Shown: positions 26,515 to 59,529, counted from the stretch's first letter. The stretch: 64,000 bases of DNA from Eledone cirrhosa (GCA_964016885.1 OZ024742.1:115754001-115818000), one strand, 5' to 3'. Made by a program: numbers and translations. The notes: a model not told the origin generated them from the letters alone.

Positions 26515-28560
26515 ATATGATGATACAGCTATGATGGACTCTGCCGTCGATTCGATGTATGAGGTTTCAACAGACTCTGTTCGTTGTTTTCTGTTTATGC
26601 CTCAAACGGCACTTCGATCCAGCTGCTGATTTAGACATCAATCTGCATTTCGAGCGGATGACATGATCATGTACAGTGCAGGCTGGAATGCGTGACTAAA
26701 CACTGGCGCCAGATTTTATATCACAGAGGTGGGCTGAATGATATTTCTTTAAGTCTTTTAAACATTCGTAGAAGACGGTTCTCCGTCATTTACGGTCAGC
26801 TGCTATGGCTTCAAACGAAGAAAGGGGTACGTTGACAGACTTAAGATTATACTTCAGTTTTTACATATATCAGAGGAATTACCTGCCCAAACTATGTACA
26901 CCATCCTGGAGCCTACTGTACAACAGTACCTTGTGTGTGAGGTCCTCAGACATTGGTTGGACCTTACCAGCCCAGCTGAGTTGGATTTGCATCCGAAATG
27001 TCTCAATCCCACCAATGTTGCATCTTGTGAACAGTTCGGCATTGGAGACTCTGTCAGAAAGTACATATCCACAGACGGAGATAAGACTACGTTTGTGGAA
27101 GACATCAAGCTTGTGTATGTGAGTGTGGTAAATTATCCATGACTCTGATTCATATACGAATGTTGTCAGTACCACTGCACGATTAGCTGCAACTTTGGTT
27201 TACAGGGATATACCTCAGTTACTGCATATGTTGTAATTTAGTTTGCCAAAAGGATCAGTTGCCTTGGAGATGCGATTAACAATCCCATCATTCTGCCATG
27301 CAGAGTGGTTCACATTGCTGCTAAGGTAAGTAAAGGAGCTCACATATTTCAGATACTTGCCATCAATAAGGAAGGGTACAAGAGGATGCCTTTGTTCTGA
27401 CCGCACCAGTTTATCGCCTCCTGCATGCCTGGATGTACCGCATCAGTCTTCTTGATATTGATTGTTAGACCAAAACCTCTACAGGCAAGCGAAAAGCGGT
27501 ACATCAATTCCTGTGCCTCTTTGAAGATTGTTGCATCAAGTGCAACATCATCAGCAAACAGTAAATCGCGAATGATACTTGTTCGTGTGCGTGATTTAGC
27601 CTAAAAACAATGATCGTTGAATAGCCCACCCGATGCACGGAACTCAAATCTGACACCAGTATCCAAATCGCTAAATGCTTGCTGGAGCATTACATGGAAA
27701 TACCAAGAGTGGCGGACGGGAGCCATAACACAACCCTTCTCAGCACCATCTGTAACACAAAAGGGTTCAAATTATTCACCATCTGAAATAACTGATGCTT
27801 CTATGCCCTAATGGAAGGATATGATGTTATGTAGGATATTATCAAGTGTGCCAAGCTTTTTCAAGATTTTCCAAAGAGCTATACGATTGATAGTGGCAAA
27901 GGCCTTAGTCAGGTTAACAAAATCATAAACAGCTCATGGTGCCGTTCATGAACCAACACTTCAATCCAGTGAATAGAGAAAATCATTTAAATAGTACCCC
28001 GATCAGAGCGGAAAAAAACATTGATTTTCAGGGTAGATATCGTCAACAAATATGTATGTAATTCTAGTGAGGCTAACACAGGATAGTATTTTACCAGCGA
28101 TACAGAGAAGGGAGATGCTGCGAGAGGAGTCCCAGATAGACGTTTTACATTTATTTTTAACATGTTCATCATCTATGCATCTCTGAAGTCCCGGTGGACG
28201 TTCCCAACATTTCAGATACCTAGAAATAGCTGAAGAAGCCAACGAACCAGTTTTTTACCACCATATTTGAAGATTTCAGGTGGAATGCCATCTTTACCGG
28301 GAGCTTTATTGGATGTTAGCCGCCTGAGAACAGCTTTGATTTCATTCAACGTTGGGTTTAATGTTAATGTTTATCATCACCCAAACCCTATGTAGGTTAT
28401 GCATTCCGTTGATAAGATTCTTGACATCCGAGTTGCTTTCATGAAACCCGTCCTGTTGTTTTCTCATAGAGAATCTTAAGATCTCCTCACAGGCTACATA
28501 GGTGACATCTTTAGGCACTTTCCAGGAAGCCTCAATGTAATCAGAAATGTTGACAGTCAC
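26515..28560 (-). pseudogene. Degenerate RTE-clade LINE (RT and C-terminal region)
   Basis: RKQQDGFHE (RKHQDWFDE-like), ISLLCIAGKIL, PENQCFF, IIRDLLFADDVAL (27540-27578), FTYLSS, YESESW, KLDVFHKRSL...RVSNAE...QLSWAG motifs. Confidence 0.88.
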
Positions 28561-30383: not shown

Positions 30384-30774
30384 TATATTAATAAAAGGAA
30401 TTCCAACTTTGTCTGATTTAGTCGTTTTATTTACAATCCTTTAAAATTCATAATGGTATTAGAATGAAATAGTATGGTAGAATATTAAATGTTAAGTGTT
30501 AATTGAACAACTACTTTCATGCTTTCGCAATCTTCAGGTTCATAATGTGTGGTGACAGTCAAGTTTGCAATTTTCAACTGTTGAAAATTGCAAACTTGAT
30601 TGTCACCACACATTATGAACCTGAAGATTACGAAAGCATGAAAGTACTTGTTCAATTAACACTTAACATTTAATATTCTACCATACTATTTCATTCTAAT
30701 ACCATTATAAGTTTTAAAGGATTGTAAATAAAACGAGTAAATCAGACAAAGATGGAATTCCTTTTATTAATATA
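30384..30774. repeat. Near-perfect palindrome (195-bp arms, 1-nt spacer at 30579), probably inverted Penelope-like 3' ends
   Basis: Arms are reverse complements with roughly 7 mismatches; each carries a CTGAAGA..GAAA hammerhead-like motif and an outward-facing AATAAA. Confidence 0.9.
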
Positions 30775-36835: not shown

Positions 36836-37046
<211 letters not shown>

Positions 37047-40690: not shown

Positions 40691-40723
40691 TTGAAATGGA
40701 GTAGAGAAGATGGGAAAGACCAC

Positions 40724-42622
40724 TTACCTTACTTCTCGTTGAGGAAGGACGGTTTATCCATCCTTTTCACTGCTTGTGGCCTCCTCAGGAAGGATGTCCT
40801 TATAAATCCTCCTGGAGAGTGCTTGTCGGAAGTCTCCGATGTCTTTGGGGAATTTTTGTTTTAGTGTCATGTACGTTTTCTGTGTGATGAGAGTGATTTG
40901 TATGTGTGGAGGTGGTGTGAACTTTTGGGTTGTTGTGTAGTCTTGTTCTGTGATGTTAGTCTTCAGTTGGATGTAGTGTAATAATTGGTTGTTGTTCAAA
41001 ATTAATGCTGTGTAGTGTGGTTGTTTTGTTTTGTTTGCGTTTGTTGTGGGTTCGTTTCTGTTTCGGCTTTTGGTGACTTTGTGGTGTAGGTGATGATGAT
41101 GCTGTTGGTGTTTGGGGTGATGGGGTTGGTGATGCTCGTGTGGATCGTGGCATATCTGTCCTAACTTTTTTGTTTGATACTTTATTTGTTTCCCTCTGTA
41201 TTTTGTTTTTGGAGGGGGAAGGAAGAGAATTGTTTTCTTTTTTCCTGATACCGTTTCCCACTCCTCGCGTCACAATCTGACTCCAGTTCTGTTAGGCCGG
41301 GGAGGCGAAAATCCTCGACAGGTGTTAGTTTTGGTTGTGGCGTGGTGTATGGTGTAGGCGCTGGTGCTAGTTCTGAAGCGTTGGGTGGTGGTGGTGTTGG
41401 TTTTGCTACTGTTGCTGGGGTTGTTGCTGTTACAGTTGCTTCTGTTGTTGCTGCTACAGTTGTTGCTGCCATCTCTGCTGCTGGTGGTGTTGATGGTTGA
41501 GTCACTGGGATGGGTAGGAGAGGTGGCCTCAATCTTTTAGCCTGAGGGCAGAAAGCCCTTAGGTGGCTTCCTTCACCACAAACGACACACCTAGGCCTTC
41601 TGCCCTCGACAATTACGGTGAGGTGGCTGCAGTCAGTGAGGTCTATTACCTCTGGGATCTCCTCAATGCTTTTTTTTGTCCGCTTGAGATCAGGAGCTCC
41701 ATCCCAGATCCGGACCAGTTCTTCTGCTTTTCTTTCGCTATTTCGATTATCTTGGTGTTGGCTTCGATGCCGGCGAGGACGGCCGCTATTAGCCAGGGAA
41801 TTTCGATGGCCGGTGGAACGTAGGTGACCATGATTTTTATGAGTCTCTGGTCACAATAGCTTGGGACGAGTGTGAAGTCGTCACTTCTTAATGGGGCCAT
41901 GGAGTGTTCTCTAGCCTCCTGTGGTGTTTCAAAAAACACGTCCGCGGTTCAATCCTTCTGCCCACGTTTAATGTGGGACTTTTTAGCCCACACATGTCCC
42001 AAAGCTTTTTGGATTTGAGACTCGGATCCTCTTTCCACTCTGCGCGATTTTAAATTAATTGTTCGATAAGACACGGTGCATAGGCGCCGATGCTCCATGT
42101 TATTAGGTGGGGGTGAGGCTGACCCTGTACCCATCTTTCTTTACCATTTTGTTTGCCTTCTTCCTGAGTTACCGTAAATGCTTCGCACTGTTTTGCTACT
42201 CTGGCAAAATCGGGATGGTTTTCTTAATGTCATTGTTGCTGTTGTTGTTATCGTTATTTTTGTTATTATTAATTTTAGTTTCAGTTGTGGTGGTGGTGGC
42301 GTCAGTGGTGTTCGGTGTGGAAGAGTTCATTTTGGTTGAATTCATTTCGATATCACGAGTTAATTTATTTTTTCTTTTATTTCTGTTGTCACGATGGTGG
42401 TGGAGGTGGGGGTTGTCGCGGTGGTGGTGGTGGTTTGGCTTTAACACCTGCAGTCATTGGTAATGGCGGGAAATGAATGTGTGCCTGAGAAAAATTTAAA
42501 ATATTGCTACTGCTTATATTTTTAGTGATGGCAAACGTAGTAATATTTACAATGGTGTTGTCGGTGTTAGGTGTTAGTTCGTGAGGAAGGCTGTCAGCTT
42601 CGTGTGGCTGTGAGTCATCCAT
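40724..42622 (-). pseudogene. E1 ORF1: gag-like nucleic-acid-binding protein with CCHC zinc knuckle, frameshifted
   Basis: Low-complexity T/N/P N-terminus, core homologous to E2/E4 ORF1, CVVCGEGSHLRAFC at ~41548-41589, terminus ...REVR-TAA. Confidence 0.8.
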
Positions 42623-43146
42623 ATTTTTTTCAAAGAAAGTTTTTTTTAATAATTATAAAAGTTAAAATGTTGGGCTCAAAGCCCCACTTTTTGAGTGTCC
42701 TTTTCGGAAAACAATGTATGTGCACTTATATACAGTTAACAATAACAATTTTACGTAAATGGCAATTTTAAACAAACGAAAACTACAAACCTTTGCGGAG
42801 CTCACGATGATACGATTTACTACGTAGGTCGCCAATAATAATGATAATAATAATAATAATAATAATAATGATTTTATTTATTAGCCACAAGGGCCGACAT
42901 GTAGGGGACAATACAAAAACAGGGACAGTGGGGATTACAATAAGGTCGAGTAAAAGTGCACAATGGCAAGACTGATTTAACAATGAATATATAAAATATA
43001 AAATAAACTATGCATAAATATAACAAAATAAATTCCCCGTTAGGGTGTGGACGACCCTGGGGTGACTCGGGTACCCCACCAATCCTGAACCACCCTTCAC
43101 TTCTAGGGAACCCAGGGAGAGCACCCCTCTACTCAAATTAGCTAGC

Positions 43147-45985
43147 CTATAGGCGCATGGTCAGAGTAGGCCCATTCACACGAGCCATTCTCGCCACATT
43201 CACCCACCTTTTAGCAAATGTACTGGGGGGCAGCACCTCTCTCTCCACCATCACATTCCTTTCCATGTGAAACTTGAAGAAGTTGATGAGGGATTGGCCG
43301 AAGAGAAAAGTGTCTGTCTTCACTCCTTTTAACCTGGTCCACCATATAATCTCTTTCCCAACTGCCACCAGTCAGAGGAAAATTTCCTGAACTAAGGAAG
43401 GTGGTGGGATGATCTTCACTATGGAATCAGCCGATAGCCGGATTCGTTCCACACGCGACAGTAGCTGTTCCACATAACTCCACAAGCCAGTAATGCACAG
43501 ACATTGGACAAGTGCGTGCAGAACGGTTTCGTCAGTCTGTGCGTATCTTGGGCAGGTCCGTCTGTCAGCACTTCCCTACCTGTAGAGTTTATCCCGAACC
43601 GGCAGAGTCCCCCGGTAGCACTGCCAAGCGAGGGATTTCTGGAAATTGTCCATCGTCCCCGGCTCAAAAGTCCTCCGGTACAGACAGGTCAGTTCGACTT
43701 CGTCGAGTCCCAAAGATTCTCCGAGTGCGTCATCGCACTTGCCCACCACTGATCCTTAATAGAACTCGAGAGTGGAAGTTCCACTGATTGCATTGCCCGC
43801 TTAACGCATGTCTGCGCATCATTAGCTACGGCATGCCCAGCCCTCCGCGTAGAGGGTGCTGGCAGCAGATGGAACGCCTTACCAACGAAACTTGTCCCCT
43901 CCACAAGATTTTGAAGAGGAGCCGTTCTAACTTGACGAGGCGCGGACGGGGTCAAGGCACGACGGTCAGGCGGTAGTAGATGACGAACGTGATGTACGCA
44001 TTCGCCACCTCCACGCGACCTTTCAGTGATAACTTCCTCTCAGCCCATTTTTGGGTGAGACTGGCTACTCTGCTCGTTACCTCGTCCCAATTCTTTTCCA
44101 CCTGGAGGTCTGGTCCGAACCAAACCCCGAGCAACTTTACCGGTCCGTCCGTCCAGCGCCCCACGACGCTGTTGGACGACATGGGATTGCCTCTCCAGGT
44201 TCCGAGCTGCAAGCCCACCGACTTTTCCGGGTTAAGTTTGACTCCTGTCAACCTTTCATATTCCTTCAATAGGGTGCCGACAAGCTCGATTTCTGAGGTG
44301 TTCGACACCGTCATGGTGATGTGGTCCGAATAAGCCGGCACCGCCTTTCCACGTCCCGGTTAGAGCGGGATGCCCTGAAACAGCTCCAGCTTCTGCAGTA
44401 AAGGCTCGAGAGTAAATACGTACAGAAGGGAAGAGAGAGGGCACCCTTGACGTACCGATCGGGAGAGCCGAAATGGTTCCGGGAGGTGGCCATTAACCTT
44501 GACCACCGAGCGTGTGCCGCTGTGCATTGCAGCGATCCAGCTTCTGAAGACTGGGCCGAAGTCAGCTGCTTTGAGGACAAACTCCAGATACCGATGGTCG
44601 ACCCTATCGAATGCTTTCGAATGATCTAAATTGATCAGTGCCCCACCGAAGCCAGGTTTACACCCTGGCCTCTCTATGATGTATCGCATGAGGTGGAGAT
44701 TGTCATTTACGGACCTGGCTGCGATTGCGCCTTCCCAACGAGATCCTCAACGACAAGTGCCAATCTCTTTGCTAACACCTTGGCCAAAATGTTAAACTCA
44801 CACATCCGCTTGGAATCGCTTATCTCGTGTCCGTCACGGTTCGCCAAAGACCGAATTTTGGTTTTATTACCACGCTGCGCCTCCGCCACGCGGGCCCATC
44901 GAACAGCTTTGTTTCCCTCGTTTCTCAGCGCACGCGCCTTAGCTCTGACAATGCAACCTTCGTGTTTCGCATTGAAGAAATGGTCTAATGCCATTCTCGC
45001 CGCTAGCACGTCAGTTGCAATGCCACTACAAATAGCCTCGTCTAACTTATATACCAGCTCCCCCTCCTTTCTATTTTTCTCTATTGCTAGTTCTTTGCTG
45101 AAATCTATCGAAGTTACTCTAATCTCTCTTTTGAGAGCCTCCCACCATCTGTCGTTGATGATCCCCCCCTGTCAACTTTTGCTTAACTAAATTGTTGACG
45201 CTGTCCCTGTAAGCCTTACGTGCCGGAAATGACATGTTCAGCTTCCAGTAACACGGTCCTTACCTACGCGTTTTATCTAGGTCAACCGTACAGATCATAA
45301 ATTTGTGAACTGAATAGGCGACCGTTTTGAAAGGTGGGCAGCCCACACTATTTCCATCTATTTTCCTAATGAAGACCCTGTCGATATACGATCGAGATGA
45401 CACCATTCGGTTGGTTCTTGTCCATACTGGCACATTGGGGAAATCTAGTCGATACTCGTCAGACAGTTGGAACTGGCTGAGTAGGTACTTGAGGCTTTTG
45501 CACCACCCTCTCCTATCTGCTACTCCCACACAATCCCAGCGTGCGTCTAAGATGCCATTCCAATCCACGGCTAAGAGTAAAGGGCGAGACGTACCCAGAA
45601 AGTTCTCCAGGCGCCTAAAGAAATCCAGTCGTCCGGCATCTGTAGGGGCGTAGACGACCAGCTGTCTAAAGGCACCACCTTCGCTACTCCTCACATCCAA
45701 GACCACCAACTTACCGTCCGGGTCCCGGAAGATCGACCTTACCTCGAGATCCAGTCCTTTCCTAAACAGCACTGCCACCCCACCCCACATTCCCAGCCTG
45801 CTAACAGATGTGAAGATGTGATACTCGTCGAATATGGGGGCTAGTGCGCGCGTGTCGGAAATTCTGGTCTCGCTGACGGCAATCACTTTCATTTTTAACG
45901 ACCTGTCGTCGTTGAGCAGGCGATCCTGCTTCCAGGGTGACCCCAGGCCGCAAACATTTAAACTTCCTACTCTTAATATGGCCAT
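43147..45985 (-). pseudogene. E2 ORF2: AP endonuclease plus reverse transcriptase
   Basis: MAILRVGSLNVCG, VSET, VYAPT, SYIDRVF, DHSKAFDRVDH, VRQGCPLS; an internal deletion near 44800 joins KRMCE to FNILAKVLA. Confidence 0.9.
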
Positions 45986-46018
45986 TTTGGTAAGCTAAGA
46001 GAGATAGGGAAGGTTTAC

Positions 46019-47900
46019 TTACCTCCCGGGGTCTTGTGAAGGTCGGGTGATTCGACCTCTATGTTTGGTGCGATTTATTTTGGGAACCTCTTTAAAAGTC
46101 TCGATGTGGGTTCCCACGCCTTCAGGAAAGCTCTCTCGAATTTCTTTGAAGGAATTGAGTGATATTCGGACTAGAAGCAAATCTTCTGGCACGCAAAATG
46201 TGCTCATTTCAAAAATCTCCCCCTCTGTTTGAATGTCCTCACTTCGTTCTAAGGGGACCATCAGTTTATCGTTGGCCCTTCTGACAAGCACGAAGTTTTT
46301 AACATTTTGTTGGTGTGCTTTTATTTGTTTTCGTTTTGGTGACCGTGGTGGTGATTGTTTTGGTGGTCTTGTTTCGGGTATGTCTGTGTTTGCTGTAGGT
46401 GTGGTGTCTGCAATTTTAGGTATTTGTGTGTTTATTTGTACTTGTGTTTGTTTAGGTTGTTTGCGTATCGGGGATTGTGGAGGTGGTGTCTATGTTGCTG
46501 TTGGTGCTGATGTTATTGGGGAAGTGTTTGCTGTATTTTTTGTTGTGTATATGTTTGTGTATTATGGGGCTTTTTTTTTGTGAGTTTTCTCTGTTTTTTT
46601 GGCACTTTTGGGTTTTCCTTCATCTTCGCTGCTGGAAGACAAAGGGTCTGTGGCTATGAGTGTCTCTGTGTCTGTCTGTGCGTTTAGTGTTTTGTCTATG
46701 TGTATAATTAGGGTGATAGGGGGAGTGGGAGAGCTTTCCCCTTGGATTGGTTTTGGTGTTGGTGGTGATCCGGCTGTTTTAGATGTTGTTGTCCGTGGCT
46801 TTGTTGGTGTTGTTTTTGGTGGTGCTGGTGATGCAGCTTTCCGTGCTGACACTGGCGTTGGCAACAAAGGAGGTTTGCGACCCCTGCATGTTTGCGCTGA
46901 GGGCAGAAGGCTTGAAGATGCGTTGCTTCCCCGCAGACGAAGCAGCGTGGCCTTCTTCCGTCAATGATTAGTTGGATTGTTGTCCCGTCCTGCAGGCGGA
47001 CAAAATCAGGGATGTTGTTCATGTCCTCCGGTTTCATTTGGAGAAGCATGTCCAAATCCATTCCGGACCAGTCCTCTCTCTCTGTCCTTTTGATATCCAA
47101 GAGGTTAGTGTCTGCCACCTCCTCGATTACGCATCCTAGCAGCCACCATATGTTCATTCCTGGTGGGATGCTGGGAATGTGGACCTTTACTGTCCTTTTA
47201 CCCATGTAGGACGGATGCATGATAATGCGTTCCGTTCTGCAGGGGGTCACCGATTTCTGAATAGCGAGGGCCTCGGTTTTGAACATTACCAAGATGGTAC
47301 CGAACTGTTTGCCTCTTGCTTTATACTCTATGTTACTTCCGATGTACTCCAAAGCAGCCTCGACCTCTGCTTGGTTGGCAAGTTCCACTTTTCGTGTCTG
47401 CACCGAAATGCATCGAAAGTACACCGTCCTCCTTTGCATGGCCGCTATTGCCTCGTCCGGATGGTCAGGTTTGCCCAGGACTTCTCCCGTTTAATTAGCC
47501 TCCACGCTTGGGCTAACTGTTCGTCTTTATCGCTAATATCAATATCAATATTCAATAAGCGCTTTGTTTTTGCTGCTGCTGAAGCAAATATGGTGCTTCC
47601 GATGCTCTTGTTGTTGGTGTTGTCATTCTTGCTGTTGTTATTGGTGTTGTTGTTGTTGATGCTGTTGCCACCGCCATCCGTGTTTACATTGAAACTGTCG
47701 GTGTAATTGTCGTTATTGCTCTGAGTTATTGTTGTTGTGGTGGTGGTGGTGTTGGTGGTGGCGGTGGTGGTGGTGATGTCGTTTTCAGATGATACTGCTG
47801 CTATCATAGAAGGTTGTGATGGTAGCTTTTGAGCTTTGTCTTCACATTCAGTAGAGTGGACGACAGGCATGACTGTAGCCGACAGTCGTGGTGAAACCAA
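46019..47900 (-). pseudogene. E2 ORF1 with CCHC zinc knuckle
   Basis: IIDGRRPRCFVCGEATHLQAFC (CX2CX4HX4C); T/N-rich N-terminus; terminates QDPGR-TAA. Confidence 0.85.
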
Positions 47901-48371
47901 CAGTGGCTGCCGTTAATCTTTTGACCTGAACGTTGTTTACCGTTTCAAGATCGAACATTTCCATATTTTGTTTTGGTGGGGAAGCGATATTTTTTCGAAT
48001 TTTTTTTTAAATAAATCTGAATATTCGGGCTTAAAGCCCGAATATTGAGAGGTATCCCTTTCTTTAAATCAAGATGTGTACCTTAAGTTTCGTTAACGAC
48101 AAGAAAATACGAAAAATGACACTTTAAAACATCTTAAAGTTACGAACCTTTTTCCCCCGCAGATTTCTACTGTCTTCACACATGTGCGTCCTTAATAATA
48201 ATAATAATAATAATATTACTACTACTACTACTAGCCGGTATCTGGAAAATATAGGATTTAATACCTCTGAGCGGTCGTTGGAAAATTATTTTCTCGTCTT
48301 TCAAGGATTTTCGTCATATTTTATAAGCTGTTTTTATAGTACTTCTGCGCTTCAGCGCTTTCGTTATATTC

Positions 48372-49813: not shown

Positions 49814-49864
<51 letters not shown>

Positions 49865-49869
<5 letters not shown>

Positions 49870-50076
49870 ACGTATGGATACACCGAACATTTATTATAGT
49901 GCTCGGTGTGTTTGTAAACAAACATCCCGTATTAAGCCGTAGTGTCCAGTAACCATCGTTGCTCGTTTGTTCAACACTGACAAAAGAACGATGTATTCGT
50001 TTCAAGCCTATTAGCTATCGTAAGCAACGTATACCTTCCTGCCAAATTGTTGAACATATATACTTACCTTATGCAT
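49865..50076 (+). repeat. Extra direct copy of the internal part of the adjacent foldback
   Basis: Close match to 50288-50500. Confidence 0.85.
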
Positions 50077-50141
50077 ATTAACGGCTGAGTAGCCCGATTT
50101 GCATATCGAGTGGGTTAATCGTTCGGGCGCACCGAAAACGA

Positions 50142-50788
50142 TAAACGGAAAAATGAAATGAAATTTCATTTCCCACTCTTAGTACGGCTGTTACTTAAAT
50201 ATAAGTATGTACACGTACATACATTTATGTATACAGACGTACAGTAGTATGTATATATTTATATACATATATACACACATATATATATATGTACGTATGG
50301 ATTCACCGAACATTTATTATAATGCTCGGTGTGTTTGTAAACAAACATCCCGTATTAAGCCGTAGTGTCCAGCAACCAACGCTGCTCGTTTGTTCAACAC
50401 TGACAAAAGAACGCTGTACTAGTTTCAAGCTTATTAGCTATCATCAGCAACGTATACCTTCCAGCCAGATTGTTGAACGTATATACTTACCTTATGCATA
50501 AGCTTGAAACTAGTACAGCGTTCCGTTGTCAGTGTTGAAAAAACGAGCAACGATGGTTGCTGGACACTACGGCTTAATACGGTATGTTTGTTTACAAACA
50601 CACCGAGCATTATAATACATGTTCGGTGAATCAATACGTATATATATATGTGTGTGCATGTATGTATATATTTATACATACTACTGTACGTCTGTATACA
50701 TATATGTATGTACGTGTACATACTTATATTTAAGTAACAGCCGTACTAAGAGTGGGAAATGAAATTTCGTTTCATATTCTTCCGTTTA
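50142..50788. mobile_element. Foldback element with ~290-bp inverted arms and ~63-nt spacer
   Basis: 50142-50434 is the reverse complement of 50498-50788; same family as 19805-20210. Confidence 0.88.
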
Positions 50789-58865: not shown

Positions 58866-59529
58866 GTTGAAATGGAGTGGAAAAGATGGGAAGGACCACT
58901 TACCTTACTTCTCGTAGATGAAGGACGGTTTCTCCATCCCTTTTCACTTGATCGTCTGGTGAAGGTACCGTTGAATCGTCCCTTCGGCTGGTCGTCGGCT
59001 CTTCTATGAGGATGTCCAAATATACTCTCCGGTTGAGAGTCCCTCCTAGGTCTCTGAAATCACTATCTGCGTTGGGGAATTTCGCTTTAATGTGTGTGTG
59101 TTGTTTCTATGCTATTCTTACCAGTCTTATGTTCGTTGGTGTTTTCATTGGTGCTGGTATTATGTAGACGTGCTGTGAAATGTCTGTGTGTATTTATTGC
59201 CGTGCATTTGTTTTTCTTTGGGGTGGGGTGTGGTTCTACTAGTTTCTTGTCGTTGTTGTTGGGTGTGTGTGTTTTGTTGTTGTGTTGGTGCTTGTGGTGG
59301 TGGTGTTGAAGGTGTTGTTGTTTGCGGTGGGGTTGTCGCCGGTGGTGATGGTGGTGCTAGTGTGAGTGGTGATGGTGTTGGTGGTGTTGCTGCTGTAAGT
59401 CTCTTTGCAGTAGCCTTTACCCTTTTTTTCATTTCTTTCCTCCATTTTCGAAGGCGACGATGCGCTGCTTCTGCGTTTGTGCCTTCTTACAACCTTTTGC
59501 CATCCCTCTCCCACATCACACTTCATGTC

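Follow-up and report, generated by a model that had tools for sequence, protein, structure and literature searches.

Does the donor-like motif at the end of a LINE's first gene work as a splice site, and if so, what for? The window, i.e., the whole stretch of 64,000 nucleotides analysed here (G000:C3:115754001-115818000), is taken from the 3.0-Gb genome of Eledone cirrhosa, and from about position 37,000 onward it carries the aged LINEs E1, E2, E4 and E5, which form a head-to-tail array on the minus strand. ORF1 of E2 ends at the sequence AG|GTAAGT, the 5' splice-donor consensus. LINEs are usually seen as intronless two-gene messages, in which splice sites are harmful accidents.

Element class and the end of ORF1 in E2

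By their sequence features, the elements are L1/Tx1-type LINEs. They have two ORFs, and ORF2 of intact sister copies features an APE endonuclease (PF03372), a reverse transcriptase (PF00078) and a C-terminal zinc domain (PF13966). Compared with solved structures, ORF2 is nearer to L1 than to R2 (human L1 ORF2p is the best match, E 5e-57; R2, E 3e-22). Its nearest named relative is from Argonauta hians (70% identity), and one distant match carries the name Transposon TX1 protein. The separate ORF1 (636 aa) contains a CCHC zinc knuckle (C-x2-C-x4-H-x4-C) and has no Pfam match. Tandem arrays occur, and (ATT)n or (TATC)n repeats are found behind the 3' ends, tail and target being indistinguishable. 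The L1-Tx1 elements of Octopus vulgaris (PMC13282606) and the Kibi and Koshi elements (PMC4494074) likewise have two ORFs and an ORF2 with endonuclease, reverse transcriptase and zinc domains, and share the microsatellite-like tails and head-to-tail arrays. In contrast, neither an ORF1-end donor nor a helix between spacer and 3'UTR is described in the main-text portions of these two reports, which make no mention of ORF1.

The features of the E2 copy, and the donors of E1 and E4, are listed in Table 1. The ATG of E2 ORF2 (45985), 37 nt downstream of the G of the donor GT, is intact, and the body of the ORF carries stops, frameshifts and deletions.

Table 1. Coordinates of the E2 copy and of neighbouring donors, counted from the first letter of the window.
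Feature	Position	Strand	Remarks
5' splice-donor consensus AG|GTAAGT of E2	46017..46024	-	G of GT at 46022
E2 family ORF1 stop TAA, Gly-Lys-stop register	46015..46017	-	Family frame, intact sister copies
14-nt deletion unique to the window E2 copy	46112..46113	-	Moves ORF1 into the Arg-stop frame
E2 inter-ORF spacer	45986..46016	-	Pyrimidine-rich, predicted 5' arm of 3'UTR helix
TAG inside E2 spacer	45997-45995	-	
E2 ORF2	43147..45985	-	Endonuclease, reverse transcriptase, zinc domain
E2 ORF2 stop TAG	43149-43147	-	Top acceptor candidate, unproven
E2 3'UTR start	43116..43146	-	Purine-rich, predicted 3' helix arm
E2 AATAAA signal and (ATT)n tail	42815..42882	-	
E2 ORF1 remnant	46015..47964	-	Probable start, several frameshifts; zinc knuckle near 46950
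Donor of E1	40722..40729	-	Arg-stop register
Donor of E4	58898..58905	-	Arg-stop register

The first-pass annotation of the window read the donor letters correctly (minus strand, 46024-46017), and both the TAG closing a 28-nt stretch and the AAG closing a 51-nt stretch (45972) are present as it described them. It also took E2 ORF1 to end in an Arg-stop codon pair, as ORF1 of E1 and E4 indeed does, and this is not so: the family and its intact young sisters end in Gly-Lys-stop. The frame leading to ...DPGR-stop is open for 156 codons in the window copy only. Between 46113 and 46112, 90 nt upstream, this copy has lost 14 nt that are present in all of the other aligned copies (29/29), and its Arg-stop frame is an artefact of this private deletion. 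In the 21 of 30 loci featuring both anchors (the other nine have no upstream anchor), the frame set by the zinc knuckle encounters one stop only, after ...PGGK, against nine in the Arg-stop frame. Intact sister copies (L115, L118, L119 and L120) run for about 630 codons to ...PEGK-stop. The deletion, the frame count and the intact sisters thus place the end of E2 ORF1 in another frame, the very outcome that the annotation had named as counting against its reading. The donor itself is retained in 29 of 30 copies of the family. E5, an aged E2-type copy continuing beyond the window, ends in Ser-Lys-stop with AA|GTAAGT. The young sister family of E2, F3, gave 335 hits, some of them intact copies.

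Some observations concern the surroundings of these elements. F3 copies, many of them intact, are arrayed head to tail at intervals of 5.84 kb (10 consecutive hits at G000:C1:423365915-423418457; L111-L116), and one locus (L207) features an F12-type junction followed 3.2 kb on by an E4-type 3' end, as in a recombinant or nested copy. The window also contains long, MITE-like inverted repeats at 30384-30774 and 49829-50778, with arms of 144-195 nt that are 87-96% complementary, and decayed pieces of a different reverse-transcriptase element on the minus strand at 27200-28300. An Rfam search of positions 36000-64000 gave no match.

Donor motif across families and in a distant relative

Additional families were retrieved with degenerate ORF2-start patterns (17 hits, all examined, and 4,275 hits, 30 examined) and among neighbours in the fetched stretches; family labels are our own groupings, based on the junction sequence. 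All 14 family representatives of the genome carry GTARGT at the end of ORF1, as do two older families in their majority sequence. Donor columns +1, +2, +3, +5 and +6 are invariant among the 14 representatives, +4 is either A or G, and +7 to +11 vary; because the donor was located by a pattern confined to 75 nt from the ORF2 start, these columns are partly selected, and it is the ORF1 stop that anchors the motif independently. As a baseline, 23 of 125 fourfold sites (18%) are invariant, and fourfold identity between the main groups is about 50%.

The codon register in which the motif is embedded varies. Arg-TAA/TAG is found in E4, F4, F6, F9, F10, F10b, F10c and F11, Gly-Lys-TAA/TGA in E2, F3, F12, F8 and F14, and F7 reads through. 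F5 and F13 are each represented by one aged copy; F5 carries AA|GT, and the register of F13 was assigned from kinship. The motif is intact in 17 of 18 copies of F14 and in 4 of 12 aged copies of F8, where it otherwise stands by column majority. In 13 of the 14 elements, the ORF1-end donor is one of only 1-3 donor-like sites among 236-306 GT dinucleotides. A donor-like site within the endonuclease motif D-P-x-G-K/R, which serves as a built-in control, is retained by 2 of 14. The E2 donor matches the general U1-pairing consensus at 8 of 9 positions.

The comparison of ORF1 ends across subfamilies, which the first-pass annotation had proposed beforehand as a test, came out in favour of a conserved and probably functional donor. 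The same annotation called this conservation independent; the conservation stands and the independence does not, as the junctions of E2 and E1/E4 share a common origin and did not converge.

A distant relative, with 44% identity in ORF2 and 26% in the ORF1 core, carries the motif in yet another position. Its ORF1 stop precedes G|GTAAGT, so that the donor is wholly noncoding and lies 13 nt upstream of the ORF2 ATG, in 39/39 loci, which resemble one another closely and represent a single lineage or a few. Position +7 is occupied by three different bases. By sequence, the 13 nt between GT and ATG leave no room for an intron. The loci (L241-L279) are tandem arrays of an intact LINE on contigs that are presumably misbinned eukaryote DNA, filed in a record whose title names a bacterial genome (Arenicella). 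Two matches from a metagenome scan were both false, falling in a bacterial gene, and neither a viral scan nor a search for ORF1 homologues returned a match.

Because the donor is kept through different codon registers and lies wholly after the stop in the relative, the motif is explained neither by the protein nor by the stop codon, and selection for pairing with U1 snRNA, whose consensus is generally known, is the simplest account.

Other peculiarities of these junctions were noted. F7 elements (L187, G000:C1:19465001-19475000, minus strand, and others) are intact, with an ORF1 of 625 codons that continues 10 codons beyond the donor and an ORF2 of 1,142 codons in which ATA replaces ATG and overlaps the ORF1 stop. 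E4-type copies have a second AG|GTAAGT within the endonuclease (window 40421, 58598 and 29480, minus strand), which most families lost. By eye, the ORF1 end of E4 (window 58898-58950), compared with L222-L240, resembles a duplicated, frame-shifted F8/F14 end in which the donor survives in the second copy only. About 17 nt past its ORF2 stop, the relative carries a second donor-like site (GTAAGT or GTGAGT, according to subfamily) followed by a pyrimidine tract; in five of its loci (L241-L279), this site makes up the ORF2 stop in the Arg-stop register.

Acceptor candidates and predicted pairing with the 3'UTR

The partner of the donor is less evident. According to the first-pass annotation, a short intron of 51 nt would join ORF1 to ORF2 in frame in E2; however, the family frame gives Glu-stop at this join in 30/30 copies. 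The general form of the proposal, in which an intron of 51-52 nt takes out the ORF1 stop and fuses the two ORFs, draws on the E1/E4 family, where an in-frame CAG occurs at 52 nt, and on the Arg codon of the L-R-V/I-G motif, which supplies an in-frame AG in most Arg-stop families. Against it, the fusion is out of frame in E2, F3 and F12, F4 has no nearby in-frame AG, acceptors are mostly AAG or GAG, and the spacer of the relative measures only 13 nt. In-frame AGs of E2 at 53 and 56 nt lie within purine-rich sequence, and an in-frame acceptor shared across families is absent. A fusion RNA would encode ORF2p and copy itself, so spliced genomic copies would be expected, as with spliced L1 RNAs, which leave such copies according to the sections consulted of PMC5860796. 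A gapped pattern found no copy missing 28, 51, 53 or 56 nt versus 190 unspliced copies with the same words, and the E4 family gave 0 spliced copies in a search with no matched positive count. Genome patterns in which the donor exon runs into different sequence returned 0 and 2 hits, both point mutants. The fusion intron is thus largely refuted, and we consider it very improbable.

No strong acceptor conserved across families was found among the elements compared. Judging from sequence, the best candidate, and a mediocre one, would be the ORF2 stop itself, which reads TAG|G in 13 of 14 representatives (E4 lacks it) and, in the relative, at 33 of 38 full-length loci. Scored crudely, with hand-set weights, it is third among 113 conserved AG columns and ranks 1-36 among about 260 AG within individual elements. 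Phase-matched stops after this acceptor looked good in the first nine families, but a stop within three codons was present in only 8 of 13, and the idea was dropped. Also rejected was an AG located about 1,590 nt upstream of the ORF2 stop, which is present in 14/14 representatives and tops the 113 columns; it belongs to an Arg/Ser codon and is missing from the relative.

Genome patterns detected no copy joining ORF1 to the 3'UTR, part of these searches having no matched positive count; cis preference could hide such copies and would excuse their absence. Four runs of unrecorded kind were compared with the elements as contigs. Those of run X4 include two that span the E2-type junction and one that spans the E4 junction, all unspliced. 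In this run, no joint was found on an 821-nt stretch, and none of 6 loose ends examined, out of 15, lies at the donor; these contigs are compatible with splicing as well as with its absence. An F3-type contig of depth 191 stops 15 nt short of the donor, where an overlapping contig has a depth of 21; contig depth cannot rank parts, and the difference is given no weight here.

The pyrimidine tract and the donor together comprise 25-47 nt, and a YAG precedes the ATG only in E2, F3 and F7. For the pairing of spacers with the initial 48 nt of their own 3'UTR, the predicted mean is -21.9 kcal/mol (-27.9 including the donor), as opposed to a mean of -12.1 (best -19.0), or -14.8 including the donor, in 68 homologous ORF2 windows used as controls. 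The excess of cognate pairing is -2.7 for the spacer, versus 0.14 +/- 0.52 in controls, and -4.0 with the donor; for the two measures together, controls give about 0.2 +/- 0.5. Free permutation reached these values in 44 and 1 of 100,000 trials, in which kin share sequence, and permutation within clades in 67 and 49 of 1,152, which is borderline. Helix geometry is uniform across families: the last bases of the spacer are matched with the first of the 3'UTR, which puts the donor at the opposite end of the helix. Even in the aged E2 copy of the window, donor and spacer pair with the 3'UTR at -20.3 kcal/mol, and the acceptor-like TTAG is predicted to pair with a CTAA of the 3'UTR. Given its predicted partner in the 3'UTR of the same element, the pyrimidine tract is likely not an acceptor tract. 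Counted against the helix are better partner windows within ORF2, which exist for the spacer by itself in 9 of 14 families and, once the donor is included, in 6 of 14. Donor pairing is predicted to rise little in the E2 group (0.49 to 0.61), and in F4 the change goes the other way. The donor bases themselves are predicted to pair with the 3'UTR in E4, F5, F6 and F9. The relative has no pyrimidine tract in the spacer, and its 3'UTR pairing is weak and inconsistent.

By eye, most 3'UTRs carry a hairpin-like inverted repeat about 25-55 nt past the ORF2 stop. Its 5' arm is also a predicted partner of bases downstream of the donor, which may represent a competing fold.

Possible functions of the donor

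U1 snRNP would very probably bind the ORF1-end donor, a consensus 5' splice site. Splicing would then remove ORF2 from part of the transcripts and yield an ORF1-only message; productive splicing as such has, in our estimate, slightly less than an even chance. LINEs require much more ORF1p than ORF2p. A donor only a few codons from the ORF1 stop would leave ORF1p almost whole and, by the 50-nt rule of nonsense-mediated decay, would spare the message from degradation. The helix formed by donor and spacer with the start of the 3'UTR may mask the donor in the full-length RNA that retrotransposes.

The nearest parallel is provided by Ty1/Copia elements, in which, according to the parts of the EVD study of Arabidopsis consulted (PMC5580714), a conserved U1 site sets the ratio of structural to catalytic proteins, yields a gag-only RNA and protects the full-length RNA. 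The Copia-type feature, a U1-type donor conserved at the end of the structural gene, is present in these LINEs. By analogy, the donor may be spliced to balance ORF1-only and full-length RNA, a reading that we favour tentatively. The two systems differ in that Ty1/Copia elements have LTRs and a single ORF, and their short intron and premature termination are proven at the RNA level (PMC5580714), whereas the LINEs have two ORFs and are known from sequence. Functional splice sites within a LINE have likewise been described in human L1 (SpIREs); in the sections consulted of that report, L1 splicing occurs in the 5'UTR and ORF1 and is judged harmful to the element (PMC5860796), whereas here the donor is retained where ORF1 ends, and the genome patterns yielded no spliced copy. 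A more elaborate form, which we regard as rather doubtful, would make the whole ORF2 a facultative intron under an RNA switch: U1 would occupy the donor co-transcriptionally, and the 3'UTR, transcribed 3.4 kb later, would zip onto donor and spacer, thereby choosing between an ORF1-only message and a full-length template.

The same conservation would fit a donor that binds U1 and is never spliced, blocking premature polyadenylation over the 3.4-kb ORF2 until the 3'UTR helix displaces U1 for export. The absence of a conserved acceptor and of spliced genomic copies agrees with this alternative, as does the block to premature termination by U1 reported for EVD in the parts consulted (PMC5580714). 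Moreover, an unspliced 5' splice site keeps RNA in the nucleus, in the portions consulted of PMC4380460, and this retention would supply a reason for a masking helix. Such a role leaves unexplained why the donor stays close to the ORF1 stop in four registers while the site in ORF2 was freely lost, and because the donor tracks the ORF1 stop, we prefer splicing to an ORF1-only message and hold binding of U1 alone to be the less probable of the two. They are not mutually exclusive, since one U1 site appears to do both in EVD, as far as the consulted text goes (PMC5580714).

The motif could also be a signal for translation or structure that merely looks like a donor, acting as termination context, in reinitiation at ORF2 or as one end of the helix. 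It lies 13-47 nt upstream of the ORF2 start, its bases are predicted to pair with the 3'UTR in the four families mentioned above, and termination is favoured by a purine behind the stop. However, other positions of the helix covary and those of the donor do not, the sole change being A/G at +4, which a donor tolerates; the frame offset from ORF1 to ORF2 varies by family, and the F4 spacer has a stop in the ORF2 frame. We therefore find such a signal improbable. Frameshifting or read-through at the ORF1 stop was rejected, as no frame offset is common to the families. Still less probable is an account by shared ancestry and chance, in which the families have diverged too little for the motif to be lost. 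Fourfold identity is indeed still about 50% between groups, with 18% of sites invariant, and the sample consists of one genome plus one relative whose 39 loci are close copies. Nevertheless, three unconstrained invariant positions would arise by chance at about 0.18^3 = 0.006, and the motif outlasts both the register shifts and the divergence of the relative.

A search of the open literature, judged by the listings of the papers, returned no description of an ORF1-end donor in LINEs. Although the original reading of E2 rests on a deletion artefact, the comparison of sequences indicates that the signal at the end of ORF1 is real and deeply conserved. That the donor has been kept in four different codon registers suggests that a LINE makes selected use of the spliceosome, in parallel to Ty1/Copia. 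A strong donor present in thousands of genomic copies (4,275 ORF2 starts from one pattern alone) could also capture host transcripts, and the young intact families make the function of the donor directly testable.
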